From a virus (taxonomy: Duplodnaviria; Heunggongvirae; Uroviricota; Caudoviricetes), in the IMG/VR virus record IMGVR_UViG_2711768068_000024: a stretch of 43,439 bases of DNA; one strand, given 5' to 3'. A program made the translations under genes and the position numbers. The notes below the pieces were generated by a model. The model saw only the letters and a list, made by a program, of their open reading frames with translations, did not search any database and was not told where the DNA came from. Positions 698 to 38,049 of this stretch are shown here, piece after piece (position 1 is the first letter of the stretch; each line of letters begins with the position of its first letter).

Positions 698-1060
698 GGG
701 GCTGATTCTGGATTCGACGGGATTTGCGAAACCCAAGGTGCATGCCGAGGGGCGGTTGGCCTCGTAAAAAGCCGCAAAAAATAGTCGCAAACGACGAAAA
801 CTACGCTTTAGCAGCTTAATAACCTGCTTAGAGCCCTCTCTCCCTAGCCTCCGCTCTTAGGACGGGGATCAAGAGAGGTCAAACCCAAAAGAGATCGCGT
901 GGAAGCCCTGCCTGGGGTTGAAGCGTTAAAACTTAATCAGGCTAGTTTGTTAGTGGCGTGTCCGTCCGCAGCTGGCAAGCGAATGTAAAGACTGACTAAG
1001 CATGTAGTACCGAGGATGTAGGAATTTCGGACGCGGGTTCAACTCCCGCCAGCTCCACCA
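698..1060 (+). ncRNA. ssrA: tmRNA (SsrA), ~363 nt
   Basis: Begins GGGGCTGATTCTGGATTCGACGGG, contains the tag reading frame GCAAACGACGAAAACTACGCTTTAGCAGCTTAA (ANDENYALAA*), ends GGTTCAACTCCCGCCAGCTCCACCA. Confidence 0.95.
1016..1060. repeat. attL: 45-bp direct repeat (ssrA 3' end), left prophage junction
   Basis: ATGTAGGAATTTCGGACGCGGGTTCAACTCCCGCCAGCTCCACCA occurs identically at ~38005-38049; flanks diverge immediately outside both copies. Confidence 0.85.
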
Positions 1061-1070
1061 AATAAATCAA

Positions 1071-1103
1071 GGGGTTACGTGAAAGCGTAGCCCCTTTTTC
1101 TTT
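1071..1103 (+). terminator. Hairpin + T-tract just after tmRNA CCA end (phage-supplied ssrA terminator)
   Basis: GGGGTTACG-tgaaag-CGTAGCCCC followed by TTTTTCTTT. Confidence 0.5.
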
Positions 1104-1118
1104 GGTAGTGGCGGCAAA

Positions 1119-1157
1119 ATGGCGACAGACTTTTGCGTCCATCTTGCCTGTCGCCAT
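1119..1157. promoter_or_regulatory. 10-bp perfect inverted repeat (ATGGCGACAG ... CTGTCGCCAT, 19-bp spacer) upstream of the BRCT gene; candidate operator
   Basis: Palindrome arms read directly; lies ~30-65 bp upstream of the 1184 start codon; no T-tract so not a terminator. Confidence 0.3.
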
Positions 1158-1183
1158 CTTGAAATCATGCAAAGAGGTTTCAC

Positions 1184-1666
1184 ATGGAAGAACTTCACTT
1201 TGTTTACATCAATGCAAATGGTCGTATCGGTGTTCACTCTATACAGAGCATCAGTTATAGCGAAAATCATATACAGGGCATTTGTAAGAACACCGATCGA
1301 ATAAAAACCTTCCGAAAAGACCGCATTCTTAAACAATACGATTCACCAGAACAAGCCATTCAGGAATGCGCGTCATTCCTCCCCGAAAACTACTCACATC
1401 TCACTAAGCAGTCTGGTCCGAAAAAAAATACATTCGATGTGTGTTTCACCGGATTTAAGAAAGCAGATAAAAAAAGATTGGTTGATAAGGCGAATGAACA
1501 AGGATTAACGGTAAGAACCTCTGTAACCCAAAGCCTTCAGATGCTCTGTTGCGGTTACAATGCAGGCCCATCAAAAGTATCGGCAGCCAGGATGAAAGGC
1601 ACAATCATCATAGATGAGCCTGGCTTTATACATTTTCTTGAAACGGGTGAGATCCCAGATGAATAA
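1184..1666 (+). CDS. Small protein with C-terminal BRCT-like domain, function unknown
   Basis: 160-aa ORF with AAAGAGG RBS 8 nt upstream; C-terminal ~80 aa (FDVCFTGFKKADKKRLVDKANEQGLTV...GTIIIDEPGFIHFL) matches the BRCT pattern known from NAD-ligase C-termini; AT-rich. Confidence 0.6.
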   Translation: MEELHFVYINANGRIGVHSIQSISYSENHIQGICKNTDRIKTFRKDRILKQYDSPEQAIQECASFLPENYSHLTKQSGPKKNTFDVCFTGFKKADKKRLVDKANEQGLTVRTSVTQSLQMLCCGYNAGPSKVSAARMKGTIIIDEPGFIHFLETGEIPDE

Positions 1667-1692: not shown

Positions 1693-1908
1693 TCAAAAAT
1701 TCATATGCCCCTGACCACCTGGCAATGGATGTGGAGGAGCAGTAGCAATCAGTGCGGGTGTCACAATAAACCGGACCACTGTTTCATGAGTAACAAAAGT
1801 GCTCCCGCAGTTAATATTTTGGCACTGGCAGTAACGCTCTTTGGTGCTTTCAGTTACTTGAAAACTGCTCCTTGTGTGTGCCGCATGACCACACTTTGGA
1901 CAATTCAT
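1693..1908 (-). CDS. ogr: Ogr/B/delta-family zinc-finger late-gene activator
   Basis: MNCPKCGHAAHTRSS...ERYCQCQNINCGSTF is the Ogr C-x2-C...C-x4-C pattern; start taken at the internal Met of the 87-aa track ORF (1693..1956). Confidence 0.8.
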   Translation of the reverse strand: MNCPKCGHAAHTRSSFQVTESTKERYCQCQNINCGSTFVTHETVVRFIVTPALIATAPPHPLPGGQGHMNF

Positions 1909-1979
1909 CATATCCAGATCCCTACCTTTGCTATCAGAATCATTGTAATGATACACAAAATATCAATATTGAGAACCAT

Positions 1980-3080
1980 TTATTCCATTTCAAGATCATC
2001 AATCTTCACTTCGAGTTCAATACTGGTTGTAAAACCGTTATCCGGGCTGACGGTATGTGTCAGAGTCGTAATGGTCCATTCCGCATCATCTATCGGCTGT
2101 TTAAAACCACTGACCTTCACAGGCATTTCCGTGTAGAGATCTGCCCGCCCTTCTGCCAGTTGTAGCGAAAATGACGCAACGCCGCGTTGCAGGCGTTCCC
2201 ACTGCATTTTCGCCGCTCGTTCGGCGTTGCTCCGGTTGGCATAAGTGCGATTAAGTACCAGCACGTTTTCATCCGTACCCACCAGGTAATCGCCCTGCTT
2301 CGCTTCTGGCTCTTTCTTCTGCTTCTTAGTTCTGCGCTTACGCTTCACCGTGGTGCTTTCTTTCTTCGCAGGTTCGCGGGTATGCAACCAGCTGGCAATT
2401 ACGCCCGTGTAGGCTCCGCGATCTGCCAGGGTAAATCGGTGACTGTCGCCGTCCTTGCGTGTGATAGTGATCACTGGCAGAGGTTTACCAGTGGCGCTTT
2501 TGCCCTGCCCCTGCCGGATGAATAACAGATTGCCATTTTTCACCGACGCGATGGCACCGTACTGTCGCGCCAGCCGCATCAGAAAACTGCCGTCACTCTC
2601 ATTAGTCTGGTCTATATGCTCCACGGGCTTATCCGACAGGTCTTTACCCAGTGCCATCTTCAGCTTGTGCCGCGCGGCTATTTCCTTCACCACTTCCCCG
2701 ACGGTGGTCTTATGCCACGATTTTTCACGGCGGGTATTCAGCGTTTCCCGAAAATCAGCACTTCGCGCCCGGATAGTCAGGCGGTCCGGTACGCCAGTGT
2801 GTTCAATCTCGTCCACTGTGAATGCCCCTTTCGGGAAAAGCGGCTGCCCCTTCCAGCCCAGCGCCAGCGTAATGACCGCACCACGGCGCGGCAGCACGAT
2901 TTTTCCGTCAGCGTCATCCAGCTCCAGATCAAGCTGGTCCGCTTCAAAGCCCCGGTTATCCGTCAGCGTCAGACTCATCAGGCGGTTATCCAGCACAGTG
3001 GTGATATCCCTGCCCTCAATACTGATGCTGAATGCGGGAGTTTTGTTGCCTTTGTTAAGCAGTTCAGAGCTGAAATTCAC
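1980..3080 (-). CDS. Tail protein gpD
   Basis: 366-aa ORF at the P2 gene D position (after U, before ogr). Confidence 0.8.
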   Translation of the reverse strand: MNFSSELLNKGNKTPAFSISIEGRDITTVLDNRLMSLTLTDNRGFEADQLDLELDDADGKIVLPRRGAVITLALGWKGQPLFPKGAFTVDEIEHTGVPDRLTIRARSADFRETLNTRREKSWHKTTVGEVVKEIAARHKLKMALGKDLSDKPVEHIDQTNESDGSFLMRLARQYGAIASVKNGNLLFIRQGQGKSATGKPLPVITITRKDGDSHRFTLADRGAYTGVIASWLHTREPAKKESTTVKRKRRTKKQKKEPEAKQGDYLVGTDENVLVLNRTYANRSNAERAAKMQWERLQRGVASFSLQLAEGRADLYTEMPVKVSGFKQPIDDAEWTITTLTHTVSPDNGFTTSIELEVKIDDLEME

Positions 3081-3562
3081 GACAGCAGCCCTCCCACCGT
3101 TTTACTGATATCGCTTAAGGCAGACGTTGCCGTGTCCTGCAGATTATTCAGTTGCGCACTGAGATCACCGAACATATCGGACAGGGATTCATCCACTCGT
3201 TTGAGCGACAGGGTGAACTCAATCCGGCGCGGCATACCGTCGCGGAAAAACTCCGTTTTAGTCTGATTCAGTCCCTCAATCACATACATGCCGTAAATCG
3301 TGCCGCTGCCTTCAATCAGGGGCCATGCTTTCCCCTGTTCTGCCATCTGCTCCAGTGCCAGCAACGACAGCCTGCCGCCTGTTATCTCCGGCATAAGAAC
3401 ACCAGAAAGCGTCAGCATGTCGTTTTCCGGTCCCAGAAACTGCGTGGACGGACGTCGGTTTACCCGACTGTTTGCCGCATGTCGCCAGCTGCGTTGATAC
3501 TGCAGTTCCTGATACGGAACGGTGCGCAGCATAAACACGTACAATCCCAGCACCATCATCAT
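3077..3562 (-). CDS. Tail protein gpU
   Basis: 161-aa ORF, 4-nt overlap with D and T, P2 synteny. Confidence 0.8.
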   Translation of the reverse strand: MMMVLGLYVFMLRTVPYQELQYQRSWRHAANSRVNRRPSTQFLGPENDMLTLSGVLMPEITGGRLSLLALEQMAEQGKAWPLIEGSGTIYGMYVIEGLNQTKTEFFRDGMPRRIEFTLSLKRVDESLSDMFGDLSAQLNNLQDTATSALSDISKTVGGLLS

Positions 3563-6500
3563 GCGTCGTATCCCCCCTGATCGCTGTAGTTACTCCTGGC
3601 TTTTGCCTTCAGCCTGCGTTCACGTTCATCAAGCTGGCGTGCCACCTCCCGCGCAATATCCTGCGCACTTTGTCCTGGCTGCGTCTGAATGATGATCTGC
3701 GTCGGTGCCTCAATCCGTTGAACGAGTGGCACAGTGGCTGCGCGACTCACCATCGCTTCACCGCCTTTCGCGGGAAGTGCCAAAGGGTGCAGCGGTGGAA
3801 GCTCTGCTGGCGCGGCAGCAACGCCCATCATTCCGGCAACAACGGCAGCCAGTGCAGCTGTATTTCTCCGGCTGGTCACATTTGCCGGGCCGTTAACAAT
3901 TTCCGGCCCGTTTTCACCGACGATGCCAAACTGCCCGCGCGGGATATACCCGCCGCTGTCATACATCCCCGCAAAGCCATATCCCCATGATGGAAAACCA
4001 CCCGATGGCATCATCACTTTACCGTCTGCATTCACCGTCGCAGGTTGCTGACGCGTCACGCTTTCCGGCAGTTTTGCCTTTGCGGCCTCTTTACTGACAA
4101 TACCGAGCTTCTCCAGCAACCAGGAAACGCCGGATTTCAGGGAGTCCAGCGGATGCATGACCATATTCAGCCCTTCCGCCAGTGCCTCCCCGAATCGCCG
4201 CCCCATTGCCGCTGCACTCTGCAGTTCGGCAGAGGTCGACTTAACGGGCGTCAGCAGATCAGTAAACCAGCCCCACAGCGCCTGTACATTGTCGCTAATC
4301 CACTGAAACACAGGCTTAAGTGGTTCGAATGCAGCACTGATGGGACCTGCCGCCGCTTTGAATCCTTCCACCACGCCACCGAGAAATGCGGTGATGGGTT
4401 GCCAGTATTTCCAGACAACCAGCGCCACGCCCGCCAGTGCAGTAACCACAAGACCTATCGGACTGAGCAGAGCACCTAACAGACCAGATATGGCATACAG
4501 GGCAACGCGCAGCATCGCCAGCGGACCAGATGCAAGCACACGAAGCACCGCGCCTGCGGCAGCCAGCCCACCGCGCAGAACCGCCAGAGGATTCATAAAC
4601 ATCACAGCAACAGCACGTAAAGCGGATAATCCAGACCGCAATAGTGCAACCGGCGCACCTGCTACAGTTTTCAGGACATTTCCCGTCAGTGATGCCGTAC
4701 GGCGCAAAGACGACAACGGCGCAGTAAGTAAACCCGCTGCGTTACACGATGAAGCAAGCCCGCGTCGCAGCACTGCCAGTGGAGCGCCAGCCAGCCAGGA
4801 CAACGCGCTGCTGGTTCGTGTTACTGCTGCCGTAACGGAAGGTAACGTTTTGATGCCCAGCACAGAGAATCCCAGACGGATGACTGCCAGCGGCCCCAGC
4901 ACTGCAGCCAGCGCCACAGCCAAGGTGCCGAGGCCTACGGTAACCGCAGCCACCACAGCTGCTACTTTCATCAGTGTGCCTGTCAGTTCCGGGTTAGCTT
5001 CCACCCAGCGGCGCAACGCCCCCGTGATGCTTTTCACCGTGTACAGAATATCCATCAGCGGCTGGCGCAGCGTTTCGCCCAGGCTGCTGAAGGTGTTCTG
5101 CGCTCCGGTTTTGACCAGCAACCACTGCGCAGAAAGTGAGTCCTTGTTAATGTCGGATTCTTTCTGCATGGAGCCGAGCGCATCATTGCCCGCTGTCAGT
5201 TTTAGCTGGCGCTGCAGTTCCGGCAGGTTGTTTGCCAGTTTCGCCGCGTCATCGCCAAACTCTTTACCAAACAACATGGTCATGGCAGACAGACGTTTAT
5301 CCTGCGGCAGTGCGTTCACCTTCTCCAGTACGCGCTGGATAGTTCCCATCGCATCCTTCGTCATCTGCTTTTCAATCACTTCAGGATTGAGTTTCAGCAG
5401 ATTCATCCCTTCAAAGAAACTCTTGCTTTGCATGGTGGCAATGGACAATTCACGCACCATCGCGTTTGCTGCACTGGCTGCAACCTCCGGCGCAGCGCCC
5501 AGTGTCAGAAAGGTGGAACCCAGTGCCGCCGCTTTACGATAATCCAGACGGTCAGCCACACCGCCCAGACGTTGCATCACATCAATGATGTCCGCCCCTT
5601 TCGACATGGCGTTATCATCCAGATAGTTCAGCGCATCGCCGAGCTGTTCAATATTGCGGGTAGGTATTTTGTAGAGCTGGGCGATTTTCCCCAGACTTTC
5701 TGACAGTTCATCCGCTGGCAGCTCAAAGGCTGTTGCCGCCTTTGCTGCCGTACTGGCGAAGGCCAGCAGGTCACGTTTCTGGTCCTCCCAGCTGTCGTCA
5801 GGGTTTGCGACATTCATGCGCGCCCCACCTTCAACCAGTGCAGCGAAATCCACCGCACCGTTTTCCATCGGCAACTGTTCGCTGGCAGCCTTGATGGCAT
5901 CCTGCATTTCATAAAAACGTGCAGTGCGGTTGCCATTATCGTCACGCAGACCATTGACCTGCTTTGCCACACCTTTCATGGCATCTTCCATGCTGGTATA
6001 GCTTTTTACTGCCGCCATCACTGGCGTCCCCATTGCCAGCCCTGCCGCCGTGGTGGTGGCTCCGGTTCCTGCGATGCGATCGCGCACCTCCAGCGAACGG
6101 GCATAACTGGCACGCGCTGCATTCATCCTGCGCTGAGCTTCCCCCAGTCGCTTCAGCCGCGCCTCCTGTTTCGACAGTTCCTGGTTATAACGTGATGTTT
6201 CACGGGCTAAACGGGCAGTTGCTCCCGCATCATCTTTCGCAGAAATTCCCGCCCGGTACAGTTCAGCACGCACAAGCGCCGTTTGCTTCTGCAAATATTT
6301 TTGTTGTTCTTCCAGGCGTTGGACTGCCAGCGTTTGCCGACCTAAAGCCACAAGATGCCTTTGTGATGGTTGCTCCATCGCCTCCAGCTCAGAGCTAAGC
6401 AAATTAGCCTTCTGTCTGGCATAGTTCAGCCTGTCGCCTAACTTCTTGTTACCAGCCTGCAGCTTGCGAAATTTTTCCAGGCTGTTACCCACCTGATTGA

Positions 6501-6636
6501 GTTGCTTTAATGCGTCACGGGAGTTTCTGATTGCGCCAGCCAGCTCTTTCGAACTGGCCTGTGCAGCACGGAATGGGCGGGTGAGTTTGTCAACCGCATT
6601 AAGAATGACCTGCAGGCGCAGGTTGTTATCACTCAT
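3559..6636 (-). CDS. Tail tape measure protein gpT
   Basis: 1025-aa Ala/Leu-rich protein with central hydrophobic repeats, between E and U. Confidence 0.85.
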   Translation of the reverse strand: MSDNNLRLQVILNAVDKLTRPFRAAQASSKELAGAIRNSRDALKQLNQVGNSLEKFRKLQAGNKKLGDRLNYARQKANLLSSELEAMEQPSQRHLVALGRQTLAVQRLEEQQKYLQKQTALVRAELYRAGISAKDDAGATARLARETSRYNQELSKQEARLKRLGEAQRRMNAARASYARSLEVRDRIAGTGATTTAAGLAMGTPVMAAVKSYTSMEDAMKGVAKQVNGLRDDNGNRTARFYEMQDAIKAASEQLPMENGAVDFAALVEGGARMNVANPDDSWEDQKRDLLAFASTAAKAATAFELPADELSESLGKIAQLYKIPTRNIEQLGDALNYLDDNAMSKGADIIDVMQRLGGVADRLDYRKAAALGSTFLTLGAAPEVAASAANAMVRELSIATMQSKSFFEGMNLLKLNPEVIEKQMTKDAMGTIQRVLEKVNALPQDKRLSAMTMLFGKEFGDDAAKLANNLPELQRQLKLTAGNDALGSMQKESDINKDSLSAQWLLVKTGAQNTFSSLGETLRQPLMDILYTVKSITGALRRWVEANPELTGTLMKVAAVVAAVTVGLGTLAVALAAVLGPLAVIRLGFSVLGIKTLPSVTAAVTRTSSALSWLAGAPLAVLRRGLASSCNAAGLLTAPLSSLRRTASLTGNVLKTVAGAPVALLRSGLSALRAVAVMFMNPLAVLRGGLAAAGAVLRVLASGPLAMLRVALYAISGLLGALLSPIGLVVTALAGVALVVWKYWQPITAFLGGVVEGFKAAAGPISAAFEPLKPVFQWISDNVQALWGWFTDLLTPVKSTSAELQSAAAMGRRFGEALAEGLNMVMHPLDSLKSGVSWLLEKLGIVSKEAAKAKLPESVTRQQPATVNADGKVMMPSGGFPSWGYGFAGMYDSGGYIPRGQFGIVGENGPEIVNGPANVTSRRNTAALAAVVAGMMGVAAAPAELPPLHPLALPAKGGEAMVSRAATVPLVQRIEAPTQIIIQTQPGQSAQDIAREVARQLDERERRLKAKARSNYSDQGGYDA

Positions 6637-6762
6637 CGTTGGCCCCGCATCTCTGAATCGCTTTATACCGCCATTCCAGCACTTCGGTCAGCGGCATAAC
6701 GTCAGTAACGGATGGCGGCCAGTGAAAAATGGTGGCGATATCTGCCACCAGATCGTCAACCG

Positions 6763-7065
6763 TCAGGCTGTCGGTAAACCGGCAAGCACCGACTTCTTCA
6801 ACAAAAAAGTGACAACCTCAACCGACATGGCTGTGAGATCTGCCGGGTCCATCTCTGCGATTTCCTGTGCAGTCAGTGCCGGACTGGAGATGCGGGGGAT
6901 CACGGTCATCATCGCGTTCACATCCATATCCATAATGGCCTGCAGGCGTGTGCCGCGCAGCGCACCAGACTGCGGTTTACGCAACACAATTTCGGTAATT
7001 TCTGTTTTACCGCGCATGATGGGGGTATCCAGTTGAATGGTCTTTTCAGTCTGTTTATCGCTCAT
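6763..7065 (-). CDS. Tail assembly chaperone gpE (E+E' by -1 frameshift)
   Basis: 100-aa ORF upstream of T; contains TTTTTTG slippery heptamer near its 3' end; the -1 frame stays open across the E-T gap. Confidence 0.75.
   Translation of the reverse strand: MSDKQTEKTIQLDTPIMRGKTEITEIVLRKPQSGALRGTRLQAIMDMDVNAMMTVIPRISSPALTAQEIAEMDPADLTAMSVEVVTFLLKKSVLAGLPTA
6802..6808 (-). other. Programmed -1 frameshift slippery heptamer T-TTT-TTG (E/E')
   Basis: Codons ACT TTT TTG (..VTFLLKK..) of gpE; position matches the P2 E/E' frameshift site. Confidence 0.5.
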
Positions 7066-7119
7066 TTTGTTGTCCTGTAAATTAGGTTCTGGCGCGGCAT
7101 TCCGCGCCGTTCAGATACA

Positions 7120-7635
7120 TCAGAGGCCGAGGGCGTTGCGGTGCGCTTCCATCAGGTCCACACCGTCCACAATTTCCACCATGTTGATAAGGTCAACTTC
7201 ATAGAGCACCTCACCATTGATGGTCAGCTTCGCGTAGCTGTTGGTACTGGTCACTTTGGTAGTGTTGCTTTCGCCCGTCTTCCACTCGCCGGAATCCACT
7301 TCTTTGTGACGTCCACGCACGACAAGCTCCACGGCCTGCACTTCCCCGGTATCGTCACGCTGGATAGAGCCGGTAAAGCGCAGCTGGATGCCATCCACCG
7401 TGGATTTGCCCATCTGCTTAAACAGCAGCAGTTCAGTACCACCAATGGAAAATTCTGTATCCAGTGCACTGTCATCCAGTCCCAGATCCACATCCACCGC
7501 CCCCGGCATACCGCCGCCGCGATACTTCTCATATTTGCGGGTGAATTTCGGCAGCGTCAGCGACTCAACGATCCCCTGCCAGTTGTTCCCGTCGTTAAAC
7601 AAGTTCAGATGTTTTAATTTGCGTGGTAAAGCCAT
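7120..7635 (-). CDS. Tail tube protein gpFII
   Basis: 171-aa ORF directly downstream of the sheath gene. Confidence 0.85.
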   Translation of the reverse strand: MALPRKLKHLNLFNDGNNWQGIVESLTLPKFTRKYEKYRGGGMPGAVDVDLGLDDSALDTEFSIGGTELLLFKQMGKSTVDGIQLRFTGSIQRDDTGEVQAVELVVRGRHKEVDSGEWKTGESNTTKVTSTNSYAKLTINGEVLYEVDLINMVEIVDGVDLMEAHRNALGL

Positions 7636-7644
7636 GTTGTCCCC

Positions 7645-8817
7645 TTACGCGCTGACCTGGCTGGCGAAATTCACCAGGTACTGATCGGTGATGCGCTGGC
7701 GCAGCATCAGATTTTCAAGTGGCGGCACTGGCGTGTAGTCATAGTCGATGGTGAGTTTTCCGGCTTTCAGAGTGTCTTTGTCGTTCACCGACTCGTCCAG
7801 CCAGCAATCACCACCAATGAGATACCCCTGACTGACCAGGCTGCGCATTTTGGCGCGGATGCCCTCGATAATGTCGCGCGCCAGCGACGGGTTCAGCGGT
7901 TTGTCCACTGCCCACATGTGCGCTTCTGCCATTGTGTCCGTCAGCACCTGCGCCGTGCGGGTGTAGTTTTCGAAGGCAAAGAGCGGGTCATCACTCAGGC
8001 AGCGGGAACCCCAGAAGCGGAAACCGTCTTTACGCACAAGCGTAGTGACGTCGTTCTGGTTCAGCAGACCTGCATCGGTTGCCGGGTCCTGCAGATCCCA
8101 GAACACATCTGCAGAAATTCCGGTGACACCGTTCACGCCCACGTTGGACAGGCTTTTGTGCCACCCAGTCTGCTCATCAATTTTGGCACGCAGACCAAGC
8201 GCACGGGCGGTGGCATATGCCGTTGCTTCGGCATTCAGCACCGTGTCCCAGCCAGTAAAGTCGGGCCAGATCAGCATTCCTTCGCGCTGGCTGAAGTTTT
8301 CACGGTAAGTGATCGCCTCCTGCACCGTATTGCAGCCATACGCTGACAGGTAAGCAAACCCACGCAGGCTTTGCGCCACACTCAGCAACTCAGTAGCAAC
8401 GGCTTTGTTATCGTGACCTGGCACGCCGAGAATGCGCGGTTTAACGCCGAGCTGTGTCTGGGCAGATAACAGGGCTTTCATGCCTGTTTTTTTACCTTCA
8501 GCAGTCACTGCGCCGATGATATTGGTCGTGGTTTCTTCTTCCGTTTCACCCTGCGGCACACGCACAACAACGGTCACGGGTTTTGCCTGGTCAGCGATGG
8601 CATCCAGCGAACGGGCCAGCGTGCCGGACTCACCCGCTTTACCGCTGGCAGTCAGCACATCAGTGATCAGCACGGGTTTATTAAGAGGAAACATTTTTGC
8701 ATCGGCATCATCGCCCGTGCAGACCATACCCACGATGGCGGTGCTCACCGTGGTAATGGATCGGGTGCCTTCGTTGATTTCAACAACGCGCACCCCGTGG
8801 TGGTAATCCTGAGCCAT
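7645..8817 (-). CDS. Tail sheath protein gpFI
   Basis: 390-aa ORF, P2 FI-like size and position. Confidence 0.9.
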
Positions 8818-9608
8818 AGCGGCGAACCTCCTGATTGGATTAGGCTTCGCCCTATGTTGAAGTGATTGTGCCCGACAAACAGCTAAGTGTAGTTGTACAG
8901 TTATTCACACAAAATGACGGTATTTGTCTACTTGCAGGGATAATCAAAATTATGCTGATTCAGGGGATTCACTGCTCTTATTTGCCGGAAATTTTCTATA
9001 AATGGTAGAAATGCCCACATCAAAAATCAGTGCAATACGCTGTCTTGATTCTCCGGCCTCTAGTAAACGTCCAATCTGTGCCCACTGTTCGGTGGTCAAC
9101 TTAGGACGGCGTCCACCTACTCTGCCTTTGTCGCGAGCTGCAGCAATCCCCGCCCTGGTACGTTCAACTATCAGTTCGCGTTCCATTTCAGCCAGGGCAC
9201 CCATGACATGAAAAAAGAAACGGCCCATTGGGGTACTGGTATCAATACTGTCAGTCAGGCTTCGGAAATTCACGCCACGCTGGCGCAACTCTTCTATCAG
9301 CGTAACAAGATGCCGCATACTGCGTCCCAACCTGTCCAGCTTCCAGACAACCAGCGTGTCACCTGCCGATAGTGTCCTGAGTAGTTTTTTCAGCCCCGGT
9401 CTGTCGGACTTAGTGCCACTGATTTTGTCCTCAAAAATCCGCTCACATCCCGCACAGTTCAGTGCATTGCGTTGCAAATCGGTGTTCTGGTCATTTGTTG
9501 ACACGCGTACATAGCCAATAAGCATGATCATCCCCCTGAATAAAAACCGGAGATGATGCCAGTTAGCCGTTATCTCTGCATTTTCATAAACGTTGGTTTG
9601 GGAGAAGC
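8333..9608. repeat. Left copy of a 1276-bp perfect inverted repeat (5' 485 bp of sheath gene + invertase gene + crossover site)
   Basis: Mirror image of 11137..12412 (left + right coordinate = 20745); identical translations of invertase (193 aa) and sheath N-terminus (160 aa) in both copies; intergenic stretches compared by eye. Confidence 0.85.
8950..9531 (-). CDS. Serine DNA invertase (Hin/Gin/Cin/Pin family)
   Basis: 193 aa from MIMLIGYVRVSTNDQNTDLQ... (resolvase N-terminal catalytic Ser motif), C-terminal HTH; track ORF 8950..9624 has an unlikely N-terminal extension. Confidence 0.9.
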   Translation of the reverse strand: MIMLIGYVRVSTNDQNTDLQRNALNCAGCERIFEDKISGTKSDRPGLKKLLRTLSAGDTLVVWKLDRLGRSMRHLVTLIEELRQRGVNFRSLTDSIDTSTPMGRFFFHVMGALAEMERELIVERTRAGIAAARDKGRVGGRRPKLTTEQWAQIGRLLEAGESRQRIALIFDVGISTIYRKFPANKSSESPESA

Positions 9609-10227
9609 AACATTTGGCGCTCAAAATTGCGCTGTATTTGATAATGCAGGCGTCAGCACCTGGAATGTTCCTGACATAGTGAAAAAGGGCCGACGCGTCA
9701 GGGTGAAGGTTATCGGCGGTGGCGGGTCTGGCGGTTACCCGTCGATAAGCTCAACGAACGCTGCCGGTGGCGGCGGCGGTGGCGGCGGTGGTGTGAGCGA
9801 GTCCGTCATTGACTTAACAGGTATTGACACCGTCACAATCACTGTAGGCAGTGGTGGCGAAAGTCAAAATACGTCAGCAAGAAATGGAAATCCTGGCGGC
9901 ACCAGTAGTTTTGGCGCATATCTCTCGGCAACAGGTGGAGACGGTGGGGGGCAGGTATCCGGAGGAGCGGGGGGAAAAGGTGTGGGGGGGCAGATAAATA
10001 CGTCTCTTGGCCCTGGCTCTCCTGGTGCATCAATGATAGCAGGCACTGATTCGGCTGTCGGAGGTAGCGGTGGTGGTCCTGGCGGGAATGGACAGGTTTT
10101 AGATTCGGCGGGGAATGTTGGCAGTAATGCAAAAGGTCCTGGCGGTGGTGGCGCTGGGTTGGCAACGAAAAAGATTGGCGGAGTTACTGGTGCTGGTCAT
10201 AGCGGGATTGTAATTATTTATTGGTGA
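9553..10227 (+). CDS. Alternative tail-fibre C-terminal cassette (Gly-rich), currently not joined to the fibre N-terminus
   Basis: Reads ...GLGEA then diverges at the crossover site; Gly-rich fibre-tip-like sequence; lies inside the invertible segment on the strand opposite gene H. Confidence 0.6.
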   Translation: MMPVSRYLCIFINVGLGEATFGAQNCAVFDNAGVSTWNVPDIVKKGRRVRVKVIGGGGSGGYPSISSTNAAGGGGGGGGGVSESVIDLTGIDTVTITVGSGGESQNTSARNGNPGGTSSFGAYLSATGGDGGGQVSGGAGGKGVGGQINTSLGPGSPGASMIAGTDSAVGGSGGGPGGNGQVLDSAGNVGSNAKGPGGGGAGLATKKIGGVTGAGHSGIVIIYW

Positions 10228-10237
10228 GGTATAAATT

Positions 10238-10396
10238 ATGTGGGCACGAATTGAAAACAACGTGGTAATGGAGTTAACTGATATAGACCCAACGGGTAGA
10301 TATCATGACTCGTTAATCTGGGTTGAATGCCCTGCTGACACACAGCCGGGCTATACATACAGTAGCGGCGAATTTACTCCACCACCGGAGGCGTAG
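10238..10396 (+). CDS. Short tail-fibre-assembly-like ORF (52 aa), partner of the alternative cassette
   Basis: ATG with GAGG RBS right after the cassette; MWARIENNVVMELTDIDPTGRYH...; converges on and overlaps the 3' end of the opposite-strand assembly gene; below the 60-aa track cutoff. Confidence 0.35.
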   Translation: MWARIENNVVMELTDIDPTGRYHDSLIWVECPADTQPGYTYSSGEFTPPPEA

Positions 10397-10787
10397 GCCA
10401 TTCAATATCTGGCGCACCGGAAGTATCGACCAGTTCCAGTGCGTCCAGATAATCCAGCCACAAATTATATTGCGCCAGTTCCTCACTTTTCAGACGACCA
10501 ATAGCCGCTTTACCAGGCCATTGTCTGTTGTTCATGTGCTCGTTGGCTTCATTAATAAGTTTTCTTTTTTTCAAATCCGCCAATTCAATAAGGTTTTCTT
10601 TTGATAAAGGTGGTTGCTCTGTCAAAACCGGATATCCCTCCTGATTGCTGACTATTTTCATGCCATTATCCTGACCATCCAGTAGTAACAGCCATTCATC
10701 CGTGGTTATCTCAACAGCATCTGAAGGTGCTTTATTTAAATCGGTAAAAAAACCATTTTCTTTTTGTGAATAGAAGTATCTGTCCAT
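10374..10787 (-). CDS. Tail fibre assembly protein (gpG-like)
   Basis: 137-aa ORF directly downstream of the fibre C-terminal cassette. Confidence 0.7.
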   Translation of the reverse strand: MDRYFYSQKENGFFTDLNKAPSDAVEITTDEWLLLLDGQDNGMKIVSNQEGYPVLTEQPPLSKENLIELADLKKRKLINEANEHMNNRQWPGKAAIGRLKSEELAQYNLWLDYLDALELVDTSGAPDIEWPTPPVVE

Positions 10788-10790
10788 TTA

Positions 10791-17159: not shown

Positions 17160-17173
17160 ATATAACGAAGGAA

Positions 17174-21755: not shown

Positions 21756-21771
21756 CAGGTTTTGTGCTCCA

Positions 21772-27387: not shown

Positions 27388-27410
27388 CGCTCGTATCCCC
27401 GCCACGCCTG
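27388..27410. other. Probable cos site (P2/186-type cohesive end)
   Basis: Bottom strand reads GGCGTGGCGGGGATACGAG, sharing its first 13 nt with the 186-type cos sequence as I recall it; lies in the AT-rich gap between cargo genes, as cos sits next to Q in P2. Confidence 0.45.
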
Positions 27411-27845: not shown

Positions 27846-28814
27846 GTGGGATCTTTCAGTTTACTTGCATCACGACCAATACCAACTGTGCTAGAAACAA
27901 GACAGTTTAACTCAGTTAACGGCAGTGACGCCGAATCTTATGCAATGAGTCAATTCATTCTTGCTTGTAGAGGAGAGGGGCACTGGGGTTCCAGGGAAGA
28001 CGACAATTCAAAAATAGATTTAATATTATCCTTCGAACATCCATGGGCATCAAAAGAAAGAATGCTTATATTATCGCAAGTTAAATCAGGGGCAACTTAT
28101 GGTCATTTATTAGAGAAAGGTTTTGTATTAAATTCGGCCGCAAAAAAAGCAGCCAAAAGGACAACTCACCATATATGTGTCGTTTGGGTTGACAGAACTA
28201 ATCGTAAAGCATTTTGGGCCTATATACATCCAAACACTACCCTTAAAAACCAAACTTATGGAGAATATCACTTAATCACTCCGGCCACACGGTTTGACCT
28301 GGCTCGCTGTATGTCCATGGTACGTGCAGGTGAAACTGGAGCAAAAGGAATCCATGTAAGAAGAAGAAACTCACTACTTAATAATCGGCGAGCGTTTGTT
28401 AAAAAACGTTATTCTGAACAGAAAGAAATCACATCTCCGGTGCTTGGGAAAATCGAGCTTACACGGCTGGGTTGGAGACATATGTTCAGAAAGAGTCGCA
28501 GAGAAGAAAACAAAGCAACGAGTTTGGACATTATTCCCTACTTGAGAAATTTACTAGTTCGGTTTCCTTCAACTCATGCTATTACTTCTTCTGATGTCCG
28601 TGATTACGGCTGTTTTACTTACCAAAGAAGAGAGCACTTATTGAAATTTAATAATCTAGAGGTTACTTATGCCAAAGGAGAGGGAAAAAATAAAGTATGT
28701 GCTTATATTCGTGTTATAGAAGAAATAAGGTATCCAAAAGATTGGACTAACGCGGTAATGCTATCACAGCAGGTTGAAAGACGAGTGGTTTTGAAGTCAG
28801 CATATTATAAATAA
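27846..28814 (+). CDS. Hypothetical cargo protein at the tin/old-equivalent position (between cos and gene A)
   Basis: 322-aa AT-rich ORF with GTG start preceded by GGAGAG; basic C-terminal half; weak nuclease-like motif (KIDLILSF ... LSQVK), not confidently assigned. Confidence 0.6.
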   Translation: MGSFSLLASRPIPTVLETRQFNSVNGSDAESYAMSQFILACRGEGHWGSREDDNSKIDLILSFEHPWASKERMLILSQVKSGATYGHLLEKGFVLNSAAKKAAKRTTHHICVVWVDRTNRKAFWAYIHPNTTLKNQTYGEYHLITPATRFDLARCMSMVRAGETGAKGIHVRRRNSLLNNRRAFVKKRYSEQKEITSPVLGKIELTRLGWRHMFRKSRREENKATSLDIIPYLRNLLVRFPSTHAITSSDVRDYGCFTYQRREHLLKFNNLEVTYAKGEGKNKVCAYIRVIEEIRYPKDWTNAVMLSQQVERRVVLKSAYYK

Positions 28815-29741: not shown

Positions 29742-32156
29742 TTAATACAGGTTCCGCCACTTATCATCTTCCTGCAAACGCTGGTTCCGATAGAAGATAC
29801 GCAGGCCTGCTCCTGACGGAATACTGCCGCCGCGAAGGAGTAAATCGACCTCTTTCTCGCTGCCATCAAATCCTCTGGATTTCAGTTCATAGACGAGCTG
29901 CTGTCGTTGATGGTCTGTAATTCGCTGTTTGTAGTCTCTACGCCGTTTCGGTTTCACCAGACGTAACCTTGCAGCCAATTCCCGGCGCTCCTTTTTGTTC
30001 ATACTGTGCAGGTAATCGTGCAACACCTTGTCATCCATGCGGGTAATGTCCGTTCTGGGGTCCCCATCAGCTGATTTATCTTTCTCCTGTTGGTTCAAAT
30101 TTTCAGCAAGGGGACAGTTATTGCCACGAGTCCAAGGGGCGCAAGCGCCCTGGTCGGCTGCCGCCTCCTGAACGTCAACGGCCTTACGAACCATTTTCCA
30201 CTTCACCGCATGAGTGCAGATCTTGCCCTCTGCAATGGGTGACCAGATGCCATAAATACGAATACCGTGATCGCCATAGGCGGTCGGCTCTTCGTTGATT
30301 TCATAAGCAGTTCTGATGAGGTGATATTTGCGGGGAACCAGTACGCCGCCCTGCTTCATGATGTAGGTGGCAAAACAACCAGCATCAGCAGCAGCCAGGA
30401 TTGCATCAAGGCGCGGGTTATCCAGTACCGGCGCACCTGCTTTTTTGTCCCCCTGTTGCCTTGCCGCCTGACCAGCCAGCAATCGCAGTTCACGGTAAGC
30501 CTGACGCCCCGGAATGCCAAAGAAGCGGAATTGCTGAACACGATGCAGAGACGCCCAGGCATTAACGTATTCAGCGTTATCACGCAGGGATTTACCCGTT
30601 TCCTTGCTGATCTCGCCAGCCAGACCACGCCCGTCAATGTTCTTACTGATGTATTTCGCGATGTAGCTTGTTGGCGTACCTTTGCGCGGGTTTATCAGCT
30701 CAGACTTAAAGCGTGGCCCCGTGTTATTGCCCAGCTCCTCGCGGTCTTCACGGATGGCAAACTTACGCAACAATGCAGTAATGGCGCGGCGGTCTTTTTT
30801 GCGCATGAAACACAACAGGTGCCAGTGAACTGTGCCGTCATGATGCGGTTCAGCCACCCGCACGCCATACCAGCGCAACCCGGCTTTGTGCATAGCCTTA
30901 CGAAATGCAGCAAACATGCCGACCAGATAATCGCTGCTTTGTCTTACCGTCGCGTTTGTCCAGGTCGGGTTTGGTCTGCCGTTATTGAGCGTGGAATGGA
31001 AACGCGACGGACAGGTGATAGTGTAGAAAACGGCACAGTCACTGCGCATTTCTGCGATAAGCTCCAGACCTTTAACACAGGCCATCATCTCATTGCGGCG
31101 ATGCGCCGGGTTGCTGCTGCTGGCGTTTACCACATCCTCCATGTCCAGCGTGTCGCCGTCTTCGTTCACCAGTTCATGAGAACGGAAAAACTCCAGCGAC
31201 TTACGGCGCTGCTCACGTTTATGCATCACGGCTTCATAGCTGACATAGGGAGATGCTTTTTTGCTGACCAGGCAAACAGCACGCAACTGCTCTTCCCGCC
31301 ATTCGCAACGCATCTTCCATAATTTCCGGTACCACCAATCGGCGCACAACATACGCGCCAGCGAACCCGGAATGAGTTCATAGGGCACGGGTTTACGGCG
31401 GTTTCTTTTCCGACGAAGTTGCTCAAACGCAGGCGGGATAACATCCAGTCGCAGGGTTTCTGCTGCCACCTTTTCCCATGTCTTGCGGATTTCTTCTGGC
31501 TTAACATCATCGGTGGCGTACAAATCACCACAAGCGGCATCAAGACACATGCTCATATGCGCAGCGACAAGAGTAGACAGGCGTTTCACCTGATCCTGAC
31601 TCATTTCAGGCAGAATCAGCAGGTCGTCCAGCCCTACATGGCTTGCCATAAAACGAAAAGATGCAGATAGCTGGCTGTCGCGTACATGCTCCAGTCGCTC
31701 CAAACATGGCTTAATCGTCTCACGCAAATAGCGGGAATAAGCCTTTGGCCTGCCCAAGCTGCTGAAGTATTCAATACGTTGCATCAGCGGCTTGCTGATA
31801 TGGGAAGGCTGGGCATTGACGTCCGCCAGAATGACCATATCTGGATTAAAACGCTGCTGCTCATGCGCCAGCTTTGCCCGACTAATGAGCTTATCCTGCT
31901 CCATTTCGCGCTGGACAGGATCACGGGATTCATTAAAGAAATAACGCTCCCAGACCTGATCACTCAGTGCCTCGCGGCGCAGGTGTTCCTGCTCGTTATC
32001 GGCAGCGTACAGAGCGATCAGGTTTGAAAGCGCAGAAACCGGCGCAACTTCCGCCGGGTCCAGATAAGGGTTAATGGCCTTTTTCGGGCTGTTCCATGAG
32101 AACGCTGCGGCAGCCTCGTTAAAGCCGCAGCAGTTGTTCATATCGGCATGGCTCAT
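29742..32156 (-). CDS. Replication initiation protein gpA (rolling-circle nickase)
   Basis: 804 aa, P2/186 A-like size and position. Confidence 0.9.
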
Positions 32157-34297: not shown

Positions 34298-34807
34298 TCA
34301 CAGCAAACCGAATGAAGCACCGAGGCCAGTCACAGTATCAACTGCACTCGCCATCGCAGGGTTAGCCTGTAAACGGGCCTGCAATGAAACAGCCGCCAGC
34401 GCCATCAGTCGTGTTACAGAATTAATGCTGCTGATGGCATCACGACGACCGGCACTGGTTTTTACATCGCCAGATACCGCACCTGCAGCAACACGCCCGA
34501 TCTCTGCGGTTGCACTCATGACGTAATGCGGCAGTTTCTCTTTTGCTACCTCATTAATCGGTACACATGGCAGGCAGTGAATCTGTGCCAGAAAACCATC
34601 TATCAGCGTTGAATCTTCAGTCAGATCGGTAAGCAGCCAGATTTCTGGCGCATTGAGCTGATGCGGTTGATCTGGGTTGAGTTTGTTTCGCAGAGTCTGG
34701 ACATTCATTCCTGCACGTTCTGCCAGCTTCGCCATATTGTGACGAAGTGCAAAAGCTCTACAGGCTTCATCAAAATGCGGGTGTTTGGAAATCTTATAAT
34801 CAAACAT
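34298..34807 (-). CDS. cII: Lysogeny establishment regulator CII (186-type)
   Basis: 169 aa (same length as 186 CII), directly downstream of apl. Confidence 0.75.
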   Translation of the reverse strand: MFDYKISKHPHFDEACRAFALRHNMAKLAERAGMNVQTLRNKLNPDQPHQLNAPEIWLLTDLTEDSTLIDGFLAQIHCLPCVPINEVAKEKLPHYVMSATAEIGRVAAGAVSGDVKTSAGRRDAISSINSVTRLMALAAVSLQARLQANPAMASAVDTVTGLGASFGLL

Positions 34808-34839: not shown

Positions 34840-35082
34840 TTACTTACCAACAATGACGCGGAAGTTGGAATGACCGAGGGATTCACGGACCTGATCGGTT
34901 TTGTACATTAAATAACGCAGGCTTACGCGGCCTTTGTTTTTTTCTTTCTTGACCATGTATTTAGCAAGCTGACCATGGTGAATTTTTTGATACACGGAGC
35001 CGCGGGAGATACCTTCCCATTCCGCGAACTCTGCAGGCGTAGCCATCTCTTTTGGTACACGAATTGAAATATCAGTGCTCAT
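34840..35082 (-). CDS. apl: Excisionase/transcriptional regulator Apl (Cox-like)
   Basis: 80-aa HTH protein, first gene of the lytic operon, divergent from cI. Confidence 0.7.
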   Translation of the reverse strand: MSTDISIRVPKEMATPAEFAEWEGISRGSVYQKIHHGQLAKYMVKKEKNKGRVSLRYLMYKTDQVRESLGHSNFRVIVGK

Positions 35083-35201: not shown

Positions 35202-35834
35202 ATGATACATGTAAAGGTTGGAGAGAATACAGGGGGAAGAGAGGCTATCCATAGACTAATGGCAGCCTATGATTTCAAGTCCAGACAGCAACTTTGCGAT
35301 CACTTAGGCGCATCAAAAAGCACCATGGCAAACAGATACTTAAGAGATAGTTTTCCTGCAGAGTGGGTGATTCAGTGCGCCTTGGAAACAGGAGTTTCTT
35401 TACTGTGGCTAACCACCGGACAGGGGGAGCCAGGTTCAAACATTGAACCCCAAAAAAATATCAATTCCGTGAACTCCAGCAAGGTTATACCTCTTTCTGA
35501 ACTAGTATCTCCTGAAATTGACAAGGCGACTCTCAACGGTGGTTTATTGATCGATGCTGGAAAAGCAATCATTGATAGCAGCATACTCCCCTCAGACTCA
35601 AGCAACCTACTGCTGGTGACTACTTCTGGTGATTCTTATTTAATAGATCGCAACCAAACACCACCAGTAAATGGTATGTGGTTAGTCGATATCGACGGGA
35701 TAAAAAGCATTGTTAAATTGACTCGACTCCCGGGAAACAAATTAGTAGTACATCAGGATGATTCATCGTTTGAGTGTGGCCTAGATGACATTGAGGTAGT
35801 AGGCCGCGCACTGAAAATCATTAAGAGCCTTTGA
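35202..35834 (+). CDS. cI: Immunity repressor CI (186-type, N-terminal HTH)
   Basis: 210 aa; HTH segment QQLCDHLGASKSTMANRYLR; immediately followed by int on the same strand as in 186. Confidence 0.75.
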   Translation: MIHVKVGENTGGREAIHRLMAAYDFKSRQQLCDHLGASKSTMANRYLRDSFPAEWVIQCALETGVSLLWLTTGQGEPGSNIEPQKNINSVNSSKVIPLSELVSPEIDKATLNGGLLIDAGKAIIDSSILPSDSSNLLLVTTSGDSYLIDRNQTPPVNGMWLVDIDGIKSIVKLTRLPGNKLVVHQDDSSFECGLDDIEVVGRALKIIKSL

Positions 35835-35835
35835 T

Positions 35836-36852
35836 ATGACCATCAGAAAACAGCCGAACGGAAAATGGTTGTGTGAGTGCTATCCCAATGGACGCAATGG
35901 TAAGCGCGTGCGTAAGCAATTTGCTACGAAAGGCGAAGCCATTGCTTTTGAAAGCTTCACAATGGAAGAAGTGAATAAAAAACCGTGGTTGGGTGAAAAG
36001 GATGATCGGCGACGCCTATCAGAATTAATTGAGCTTTGGTATTCCCTGTATGGTCAGACACTCGCAGACCCCAAGCGCCTCATGGCGAAACTTAGAATTA
36101 TCTGTAATGGTCTAGGCGACCCCATCGCCTCAGAACTGACAGCCGGTGACTTTACGAAATACCGCGAAGCACGGTTAAAAGGTGACGTTCGTAACGAAGA
36201 CGGCACACTAATGTCGCCAGTAAAACCACGCACGGTGAATCTTGAGCAACGTAACCTATCATCGGTTTTTGGCACATTGAAAAAACTAGGCCACTGGTCA
36301 GCACCAAATCCTCTCGCCGGGCTGCCAACATTTAAAATCGCTGAGGGGGAACTGGCGTTCCTGACCTCGGAAGAAATTAAACGTCTGCTAGATGCCTGCG
36401 CTGATTCTCAAAACCCCAGTCTGCTTTTGATTGCAAAAATATGCCTGGCCACCGGCGCACGCTGGAGTGAAGCCGAAAACCTGCAGGGCCATCAGTTATC
36501 TAAATACCGCATCACTTATACCAAGACGAAGGGTAAGAAAAACCGCACCGTGCCGATATCTCAAGATCTGTATGACGAACTCCCCAAGAACAGAGGGAAG
36601 CTATTCACCCCGTGCAGAAAAGCCTTTGAACGAGCAGTAAAGCGAGCTGGCATCGAGCTGCCAGAGGGCCAATGCACTCACGTGCTACGTCATACATTCG
36701 CCAGCCATTTTATGATGAATGGCGGAAACATACTGGTGCTGCGCGATATTCTGGGCCATGCCGATATAAAAATGACGATGATCTATTCTCATTTTTCACC
36801 AGAACACTTAGAAGATGCAGTAACTAAGAATCCTTTAAATTATATTGAGTGA
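35836..36852 (+). CDS. int: Tyrosine integrase (P2/186 family)
   Basis: 338 aa; C-terminal catalytic region (..HVLRHTFASHFMMNGG..LRDILGHADIKMTMIYSH) with the R...H-x-x-R...Y pattern; adjacent to attR. Confidence 0.9.
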   Translation: MTIRKQPNGKWLCECYPNGRNGKRVRKQFATKGEAIAFESFTMEEVNKKPWLGEKDDRRRLSELIELWYSLYGQTLADPKRLMAKLRIICNGLGDPIASELTAGDFTKYREARLKGDVRNEDGTLMSPVKPRTVNLEQRNLSSVFGTLKKLGHWSAPNPLAGLPTFKIAEGELAFLTSEEIKRLLDACADSQNPSLLLIAKICLATGARWSEAENLQGHQLSKYRITYTKTKGKKNRTVPISQDLYDELPKNRGKLFTPCRKAFERAVKRAGIELPEGQCTHVLRHTFASHFMMNGGNILVLRDILGHADIKMTMIYSHFSPEHLEDAVTKNPLNYIE

Positions 36853-37919
36853 AAATCATGTTAAGTGATACTTGTTATACAGTGATTTATATTGCAGCAA
36901 TCGTTTTATTAGTATTTATTACAATAGTAAAAAAATGGTACATGCTTGATAAAAGAAATTTATTTCGTCAGAAATTATTTTGGATTTCAGTTTTAACACC
37001 TTTATTTTCCTTTATCTATTTTGGTTTTTTCACATGGTGGGGAAAAGAACCAGTACTCTCCGCACATGGCTATTCAAGATTTTACGAAATAAGCAAATTC
37101 CCTCTACTATTGCTAGCTAGTGCAGTTCCTTTGGCTTCGATCGTCAACAATATACATCGCACTATACAAACCGAAGCTCAGATCAACACCGCTGAAACGA
37201 AAAATGCAGTCGATAGATATTTAGCACATGAGAAAAACTTTATTGAGAAAACAAAGGAAATATTCGCCTACAATCTTCAAAGCGCGAGAGACTCAGATGG
37301 AAACCTCATTAAATTCAATGGCGAACCAAATATCACTTTGTTTACAGCAGATGAAATTAAAATTTCCAACCCATATCTTTTATATACAAAAATATACAAC
37401 AAATCAAATATAGAGACCACATCTAACTTCACCGCAAACCCTGATTTTTTAGTGCAATTAAAGGAGTACTTAAACACAATTAATAATACTCTGTCGGTTC
37501 AACACTCTATAGATGAATATAATCCATTAAGTTACATGATTCGACTTAACACTTTGTCATATAATACAGCCTCGTTATTAGACCTGATATGTACATCCCC
37601 CATATCTCATGTATACTGTTTGATAAAATATGATGGGTATCAATTAAAAACATTTACACTTGAAGAACAAGTATTCGCCGATATTTTAGAAATATCATAT
37701 CTTCTATCAAGAAAACTAATTCGTTTGATATATAATGAAGATATACCACATTACGACAACATTTATAATTACTTATATGTTGGTAAGTTGAGGTTTAAAT
37801 TCAGAAAACACGCCAATTCTTTACAAGCATTTTCTTCGCAGGAATGGGCTGATTACGTTTCTGAAGCACTAACTCTAGTTCCTAACGAAGTTGGCGGCAC
37901 TTTGGCGGCAGCGCATTAA
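36849..37919 (+). CDS. Membrane-anchored cargo protein of unknown function between int and attR
   Basis: 356-aa very AT-rich ORF (GTG at 36849 or ATG at 36858); three predicted N-terminal TM helices then an Asn/Tyr/Ile-rich soluble domain. Confidence 0.65.
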   Translation: MKIMLSDTCYTVIYIAAIVLLVFITIVKKWYMLDKRNLFRQKLFWISVLTPLFSFIYFGFFTWWGKEPVLSAHGYSRFYEISKFPLLLLASAVPLASIVNNIHRTIQTEAQINTAETKNAVDRYLAHEKNFIEKTKEIFAYNLQSARDSDGNLIKFNGEPNITLFTADEIKISNPYLLYTKIYNKSNIETTSNFTANPDFLVQLKEYLNTINNTLSVQHSIDEYNPLSYMIRLNTLSYNTASLLDLICTSPISHVYCLIKYDGYQLKTFTLEEQVFADILEISYLLSRKLIRLIYNEDIPHYDNIYNYLYVGKLRFKFRKHANSLQAFSSQEWADYVSEALTLVPNEVGGTLAAAH

Positions 37920-38004
37920 AAATTAGTAAAATGGACAAACACTACATAACAATAACGCACTGTTTTTAAATGCAAACTACTGTTTTTGCTATAGTAAAAA
38001 TGGT

Positions 38005-38049
38005 ATGTAGGAATTTCGGACGCGGGTTCAACTCCCGCCAGCTCCACCA
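38005..38049. repeat. attR: second copy of the 45-bp ssrA 3'-end repeat
   Basis: Identical to 1016..1060; followed by a hairpin/T-tract and then the P4-type integrase gene, i.e. the original ssrA 3' flank. Confidence 0.85.

Follow-up and report, generated by a model that had tools for sequence, protein, structure and literature searches.

The gene encoding transfer-messenger RNA (tmRNA), ssrA, is one of two sites with an extreme diversity of prophages and islands in Escherichia coli and Salmonella, and it flanks an integration hotspot (PMC3603311). The phages Fels-2 and SopEPhi integrate in ssrA (PMC3448106, citing Pelludat et al. 2003), and phage Cartapus is an inducible Fels-2-like prophage of E. 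coli strain LF82 (PMC9928086). Excision of the island CP4-57 of E. coli K-12 deletes nucleotide T357 of ssrA, because the distal repeat of the island is imperfect (PMC10107115). Here, we describe a 43,439-nucleotide stretch of DNA (IMG/VR virus record IMGVR_UViG_2711768068_000024, hereafter the window), which corresponds to the chromosomal smpB-ssrA region of E. coli. The best overall explanation of the window, to which we assign a probability of about 0.9, is that two independent integrative elements stand one behind the other at the ssrA 3′ end: a prophage of the P2 family and, distal to it, an island with a P4-type integrase. The stacking of elements at ssrA is a well-documented pattern at a known hotspot, and Williams reportedly catalogued tandem occupancy of the tmRNA gene in 2003 ('Traffic at the tmRNA gene'). 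The window is one further example of such layering and opens no new question. Its value is that of annotation, as it provides base-exact boundaries of the prophage (1061-38049, with cores at 1016-1060 and 38005-38049).

Prophage boundaries at the 3′ end of ssrA

The window starts with smpB (1..483, + strand), the chromosomal gene upstream of ssrA, as annotated in RefSeq for a 100%-identical region. ARAGORN detects a single tmRNA gene at 698..1060 (+), with the tag ANDENYALAA. The Rfam model RF00023 matches ssrA over its full length (model positions 1-374 of 374, 295.8 bits), and 363 of 363 nucleotides are identical to the ssrA of K-12. All three results agree with the proposal of an earlier note, made from the sequence of the window alone, that the tmRNA gene is intact. 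The last 45 bp of the gene (1016..1060, +), which comprise the T-arm, the 3′ strand of the acceptor, and the CCA end, are repeated exactly and in direct orientation at 38005..38049 (+), as the same note had reported. The 26-nucleotide 3′ part of the repeat has exactly two copies in the window and none in 100 shuffles, and the repeat is thus non-random. The first copy is the identity block of the left prophage attachment site, attL; the one at 38005..38049 is that of attR and doubles as the left boundary of the island.

The free genome of phage Cartapus contains the same 45 bp, together with both phage arms of the window, as one contiguous attP sequence. The attP arm to the left of attR reads ...ctgtttttgytatagtaaaaatggt, and the arm to the right of attL reads aataaatcaaggggttacgtgaaagcgtagccccttttt.... 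In the record of phage Fels-2, a 47-bp attP is annotated in the corresponding position; its flanks are the same, and it is split across the ends of the record. A pattern search for the motif TGGCGRCA identifies 15 occurrences in the window, five of which are located beside the cores. Three of these putative arm-type sites of the integrase Int lie in the phage arm beside attL (1109..1156) and are conserved in Fels-2, and two lie in the arm beside attR (37892..37910, +) and are conserved in both Cartapus and Fels-2. The sites match the arm-type consensus annotated in phage 186 (YAYCGCCAYTY, on the other strand) and its layout of three plus two sites.

The comparison with a prophage-free strain, which the earlier note had suggested as a check, reveals a precise empty site. 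The phage-free genome of SA31-1 is collinear with both flanks of the prophage, corresponding to window positions 1-1060 (100% identity) and 38005-43439 (99.95%). The overlap between the alignments is exactly the 45 bp, present as a single copy in SA31-1. The absence of the 45 bp from related empty sites had been set beforehand as the observation that would speak against the reading, and the sequence is present there. A synthetic query of the empty junction, composed of ssrA and the flank following attR, finds matches with 100% identity over 762 nucleotides in many genomes. Judging from these sequence comparisons, the P2-like phage is inserted precisely at the 3′ end of ssrA.

The empty site and attP also bear on the idea that the whole of 1061-43439, and whatever follows it, forms one composite mobile element, which has two integrases and moves as a whole. 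The genes of the two parts are contiguous, and both integrases have the same target gene. However, in the free Cartapus genome (33.4 kb, with cos ends), attP connects the two arms of the phage without any island sequence, the island stands alone at ssrA in many genomes, and relatives lack an att copy distal to the island. The probability that we give to such a composite is close to nil; a single composite element is refuted by the empty-site and attP data.

The phage carries an intrinsic terminator that now follows ssrA (1069..1103, +). It consists of a hairpin with a 12-bp stem (1069-1096), beginning nine bases past the CCA, and a subsequent run of T residues, with a predicted free energy of -23.6 kcal/mol and a z-score of -6.2. 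The hairpin is identical in the attP flank of Cartapus and near-identical in Fels-2. At the level of sequence, the phage therefore provides the present terminator of ssrA, as had been claimed, and the hairpin is predicted to end its transcription. The terminator-like hairpin that the note had described beyond the second repeat also exists: the island-borne element spans 38084..38119 (+), with the hairpin at approximately 38084-38113 followed by a T run. It is weaker than the phage terminator and, by comparison with K-12, homologous to the ssrA terminator of that strain, which lies inside CP4-57.

In a metagenome contig (L013, 5640-5690) with the same phage family and the same island, the attR copy reads CCGCCAGCCCACCA. 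This copy lacks the T corresponding to T357 of the tmRNA, which is the same lesion as in psaA of K-12. In that contig, an excision crossover upstream of the T357 position would leave a defective ssrA; the copy in the window is intact.

The downstream island and the order of arrival

The part of the window past 38050 contains four genes. The first encodes the P4-type integrase of the resident island (38215..39444, +), with the domains Arm-DNA-bind_3, Phage_int_M, and Phage_integrase; the protein scores 440 bits against NF007246. It is followed by an open reading frame (ORF) for a 138-residue protein of unknown function (39483..39899, +; phrog_6556). The remaining two genes encode a Response_reg_2 protein (39971..41737, -; PF19192) and a HEF_HK/HATPase_c protein (41721..43439, -; PF19191 and PF02518), the start codon of which is the last triplet of the window, as established by alignment to SA31-1. 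The P4-type integrase with its own cargo, which the earlier note had placed beyond attR, was thus recovered by domain, family, and cargo gene matches. The cargo has a low GC content and directly follows the integrase. The Response_reg_2/HEF_HK pair is known only from bioinformatic work, which portrays it as a two-component-like system found in association with restriction-modification and paraMORC genes (PMC8011034). Its location directly after a P4-type integrase is the position of the P4 defence hotspot. PADLOC gives no meaningful match for the gene pair.

The note called the island CP4-57-like, which holds for the family of the integrase and for its position. The likeness does not extend further: the integrase is 48% identical to IntA of K-12, no cargo is shared, and relatives have no distal att. 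The genes characteristic of CP4-57 (alpA, yfjI, abpAB, and rnlAB) are missing from the window, and no nucleotide match to the K-12 region exists past window position 38118. A third att repeat, proposed for the far end of the island, is absent in close relatives, in which the island is cut by an insertion sequence, IS3. In the phage-bearing EC5502 and the phage-free SA31-1, IS3 is positioned 152 bp past the histidine kinase (HK)-like gene, and thus 152 bp beyond the end of the window, and 64 bp before a 5′-truncated ygaQ. No distal att repeat was found downstream of the island in EC5502, SA31-1, and ACN001 in searches with 26-, 18-, and 14/15-nucleotide cores that allowed mismatches or a one-nucleotide gap; the same search finds a distal copy only in CP4-57 of K-12 (psaA). 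Judging by these relatives, the island is the stranded remainder of an element carrying a P4-type integrase, and not CP4-57 itself. A distal CCGCCAGC(T)CCACCA repeat past 43439, if found, would revive the mobility of the island.

In strain F719 (L001, 6994-9484), behind a prophage 99.9% identical to that of the window, the island integrase is cut by IS3 after approximately 480 bp. Beyond IS3 lie the 3′ remainder of another P4-type integrase gene, 78% identical, and island genes of the ACN001 type. The arrangement suggests an IS3-mediated fusion of two formerly tandem islands.

The two elements of the window have separate integrases, a copy of the 3′ end of the target gene lies between them, and each of them is found without the other. 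We counted junctions in 5,426 complete E. coli genomes at a query coverage of at least 80%. The island directly follows ssrA, in a phage-free junction, in 959 of the genomes, the attL junction of the prophage is present in 230, and attR is joined to this island in 64. We set aside WGI31CT, the best-scoring match to the right end, the context of which is scrambled and contains plasmid sequence. In ACN001, the same phage family precedes a different island, with a type I restriction-modification system. The exact cargo protein of the island occurs in three settings: phage-free, downstream of a P2-like phage, and downstream of a lambdoid one. The cargo of the island is therefore an evolutionary unit apart from that of the prophage, since the island occurs both phage-free and beside other phages. 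The distinction matters for placing defence genes in mobile or immobile contexts. The claim that a P2-like phage and a second integrase-bearing element are stacked in ssrA is upheld by the empty site, attP, and the independence of the units.

In the loci L016, L018, and L019 (approximately 5400-13600), the place between ssrA and the same island is taken by a lambdoid prophage. It has an integrase of a different type, with an Arm-DNA-bind_2 domain, and, beside att, cargo encoding an AAA_15 ATPase and a Dam-type methylase. Its repeat of the ssrA 3′ end is shorter, approximately 26-32 bp, with one mismatch.

In the history that we propose, the proximal element would be a temperate myovirus of the P2 family, from the Fels-2/Cartapus group. 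Its Int would have acted on attP, which includes 45 bp identical to the ssrA 3′ end, and on the chromosomal ssrA, and the recombination between them would have duplicated the 45 bp. The ssrA gene would have stayed intact, with its transcription now ending at the terminator carried by the phage. The distal element, beginning at the attR copy, would be the stump of an older integrative element, consisting of a P4-type integrase and a three-gene cargo. Its far end would have been lost to an IS3-associated deletion in close relatives, leaving it stranded. Excision mediated by Int and Apl would restore a wild-type ssrA abutting the island, and would be scarless because the two 45-bp copies are identical. 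We infer from the population data, and not from this one sequence, that the phage is most likely the later arrival, because elsewhere different phages, one of them lambdoid, sit between ssrA and the same remnant. The junction counts, the variety of proximal elements, and the IS3 truncation common to phage-bearing and phage-free strains point to the island as the older resident.

The reverse order, in which ssrA already held the phage and the P4-type integrase element then entered the attR copy, would produce the same final layout. The attR copy holds the full terminal segment of approximately 15 bp that is duplicated by elements of the CP4-57 type, and is formally a usable target. Nevertheless, we consider this order very unlikely. 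The island is far more common without the phage (959 versus 64 genomes) and stands behind three different proximal elements. Relatives share the same derived IS3 truncation with or without the phage, which argues for an old and immobile resident, and a truncated element without a distal att cannot integrate as it is.

A functional pairing, in which the island is a P4-like satellite mobilized by the P2-like phage beside it as its helper, is suggested by the P4-type integrase and by the resemblance of the integrase and defence-like cargo to the int-proximal end of a satellite. In P4-like satellites, the main defence hotspot is located between int and the psu-delta-sid genes (PMC13586616; PMC9122126). 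None of the satellite core components (psu, delta, sid, alpha primase, alpA/epsilon, and cos) is present among the four island genes in the 5.4 kb visible in the window, and relatives run straight into IS3 after these four genes. Furthermore, every context recovered for the exact cargo protein stops at IS3 or at a contig end, and the island mostly lacks a P2-like neighbor. The pairing is thus very unlikely. A live P4-like satellite with its helper is rejected, and the island would be at best the stump of a dead satellite.

We also considered that the orphan integrase of the island could act in trans on both ssrA cores as a gatekeeper, promoting or blocking the loss of an incoming prophage. The idea arises because the stump keeps an intact P4-type integrase in approximately 18% of complete E. 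coli genomes, with no distal att in relatives, and because each phage landing in ssrA adds a second core site in direct orientation for this integrase. However, an integrase of this class usually requires both partners to carry arm sites, and we regard such a role as highly improbable.

Several points weigh against the reading of two independent elements, with the phage as the later arrival. One sequence cannot give the order of arrival, and the island could in principle have entered the attR copy. The excision of the phage and the use of its terminator in this strain are predictions from the sequence. The far end of the island lies beyond the window, and its truncation here is deduced from relatives. 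Finally, a 1.43-kb inverted duplication truncates the tail-fibre gene H, so infectious particles may fail to form, or the assembly may be locally wrong.

Gene content of the prophage

The prophage of the window (1061-38049; 36,989 bp including one core) belongs to the P2 family and has a lysogeny module of the 186 type. It is collinear with Escherichia phage Cartapus (Peduoviridae, Elveevirus), with approximately 96% nucleotide identity except for a few variable loci. Over 26 kb, it is 99.9% identical to the RefSeq-annotated prophage of strain F719; the F719 record differs from the window in the tail region and the island. The annotation of the F719 prophage has the full P2 order of ogr and D to the portal gene Q, together with gpA, Dam, CII, Apl/Cox, CI, and Int. 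The features that place the window prophage in the Fels-2/Cartapus group are structural and lysis genes in P2 order with a cos site, a switch composed of CI (Phage_CI_repr and Phage_CI_C), Apl/Cox, and CII, an Int of the Fels-2 group, and an attP core that equals the 3′ end of ssrA and is duplicated as attL and attR.

The gene for the ogr/B-type late-gene activator (1693..1911, -) is assigned from the annotation of the collinear F719 prophage. It is followed by a late block in P2 order (1980..25551), with gene D and the tail, baseplate, lysis, head, terminase P, and portal Q genes, as supported by the approximately 96% nucleotide identity to Cartapus and by the F719 annotation; the block includes an anomalous segment at 8328-12598. 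The cos site (27382..27440) is 98% identical to the annotated cos of Cartapus, and both ends of the Cartapus genome abut there. The replication endonuclease gpA is encoded at 29742..32156 (-), according to the annotation of F719 and the Cartapus homolog. The genes cII (34298..34807, -) and apl/cox, which encodes an 80-residue excisionase-repressor (34840..35082, -), are identified as a pair by matches to phrog_575 and phrog_6912 and by annotation. The CI repressor of the 186 type (35202..35834, +) has the domains PF07022 and PF16452, and is 33% identical to CI of phage 186. The tyrosine integrase of the P2/186 family (35836..36852, +; PF24624 and PF00589) has the specificity group of Fels-2; it is 94% identical to Int of Cartapus, 92% to that of Fels-2, and 54% to that of 186. 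The int and apl genes, the cos site, and the late genes are thus all present, and we infer from the sequence that this copy could excise.

These identities qualify the earlier designation of the phage as 186-like. It fits the lysogeny module and the architecture of the switch, and the true relatives of the prophage are Fels-2 and Cartapus; on sequence grounds, the prophage is a member of their group. The integrase was also said to adjoin the second repeat. It is indeed encoded on that side of the prophage, but an ORF of 353-356 residues intervenes, and the int stop codon is 1,152 bp away from attR.

The variable loci of the phage are int-att, Q-cos-A, and V-S. These are the published hotspot positions of P2 phages (PMC13586616; PMC9122126). 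The intervening ORF (36858/36849..37919, +) is the cargo of the int-att locus, in which it occupies the 1.15 kb between int and attR, with a GC content of approximately 33%. Its sole family match is phrog_17460, of unknown function, and it has no match in Pfam, NCBIfam, or PADLOC. Its named homologs are all from Enterobacterales, and many further homologs have no source name. The AlphaFold2 model is confident (predicted local distance difference test score of 83) and contains three long N-terminal helices in a hydrophobic part of the sequence, which probably span the membrane and would anchor the protein there. The model has no informative fold match in the PDB or BFVD. In relatives, the locus contains genes for a dCTP deaminase or a RES protein, gapS1, or other genes. 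The ORF is a candidate defence or exclusion gene, because related phages carry the dCTP deaminase, the RES protein, or gapS1 at this position.

At the left end of the phage, beside attL, lies a moron encoding a BRCT-like protein of 160 residues (1184..1666, +). The protein belongs to phrog_2561, is a homolog of Cartapus gp32, and is annotated as 'DNA ligase' or 'exonuclease'. In the LF82 lysogen, expression of the Cartapus homolog, which is reported as a moron, exceeds the background 15-fold (PMC9928086). The Q-cos-A hotspot (25586-28814) contains, on one side of cos, the PADLOC candidate system PDC-M03, composed of PDC-M03B (25586..26326; HIRAN domain according to RefSeq) and PDC-M03A (26323..27237). 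The ORF for a 322-residue protein on the other side of cos (27846..28814) has no PADLOC or PHROGs match. A low-GC gene at 16173-17159 encodes a DUF6602 protein of 328 residues with an N-terminus resembling the PD-(D/E)xK nuclease NucC. It is inserted on the opposite strand between the baseplate gene V and the tail gene S, where Cartapus and EC5502 carry other genes.

The anomalous part of the late block is the tail-fibre segment. It contains a perfect inverted repeat of 1,281 nucleotides (8328-9608 and 11137-12417), which duplicates a Gin-type invertase and the first approximately 490 nucleotides of the sheath gene FI. A direct repeat of 185 nucleotides is located at 10980-11164 and 12414-12598, and taking out the 1,434 bp between its copies would result in a normal invertible tail-fibre segment. 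The truncated gene H (12399..13634, -) stops at 411 residues. The junction at 12417/12418 is found in none of the 5,426 E. coli genomes, and the duplication is unique to the window sequence. It either arose by a very recent rearrangement or reflects a chimeric assembly of both orientations of the invertible segment.

Comparison with known systems

The window phage shares with Fels-2 (Felsduovirus) and SopEPhi the virion genes of the P2 family and the CI/Apl/CII switch of the 186 type. With Fels-2, it also shares 92% of the Int sequence, the position of attP at the 3′ end of ssrA (47 bp annotated in Fels-2, 45 bp identical here), the terminator hairpin following att, and the arm-type sites. However, int and attP are separated by only approximately 118 bp in Fels-2, whereas a cargo ORF of 1.07 kb lies between them in the window phage, which also has the BRCT-like moron on the other side of att. 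The nucleotide identity of int is only approximately 85%. Fels-2 and SopEPhi are phages of Salmonella, whereas the host of the window phage is E. coli.

Cartapus, which is prophage 4 of the adherent-invasive E. coli strain LF82, resembles the window phage more extensively, with approximately 96% nucleotide identity over most of the backbone, an identical 45-bp core, identical att arms and terminator, the BRCT-like moron, and identities of 94% in Int and 98% in cos. The two phages differ in the cargo of every variable locus. Cartapus carries a RES protein at int-att, DUF4145 at Q-cos, and gp14 at V-S, where the window phage has the 356-residue ORF, PDC-M03A/B, and DUF6602, respectively. Their CI regions are approximately 84% identical, and the inverted duplication in the tail-fibre segment is an addition of the window copy. 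Coliphage 186 (Eganvirus) has its lysogeny module and att region built in the same way, with int, a small ORF, and an attP containing the 3′ end of an RNA gene, three plus two arm sites, and the Apl excisionase. Nevertheless, it targets the ileY/ileX tRNA rather than ssrA, and the sequence identity is limited to 54% in Int and 33% in CI.

The island resembles P4-like satellites in the succession of a P4-type integrase and low-GC, defence-like cargo (PMC8011034; PMC13586616), but it has no satellite core genes and is truncated by IS3 in relatives. It shares with CP4-57 of K-12 a P4-type integrase just downstream of ssrA and an element-supplied ssrA terminator, with homologous hairpins. It differs from CP4-57 in the 48% identity to IntA, in the loss of nucleotide similarity past approximately 70 bp after the core, and in the absence of alpA, yfjI, rnlAB, and abpAB. 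CP4-57 keeps a distal 14-bp pseudo-ssrA repeat (psaA, without T357), whereas the relatives of the island have none. Excision of CP4-57 damages ssrA through the deletion of T357. In contrast, excision of the window phage would not, and ssrA would be of the wild type both before and after the departure of the prophage.

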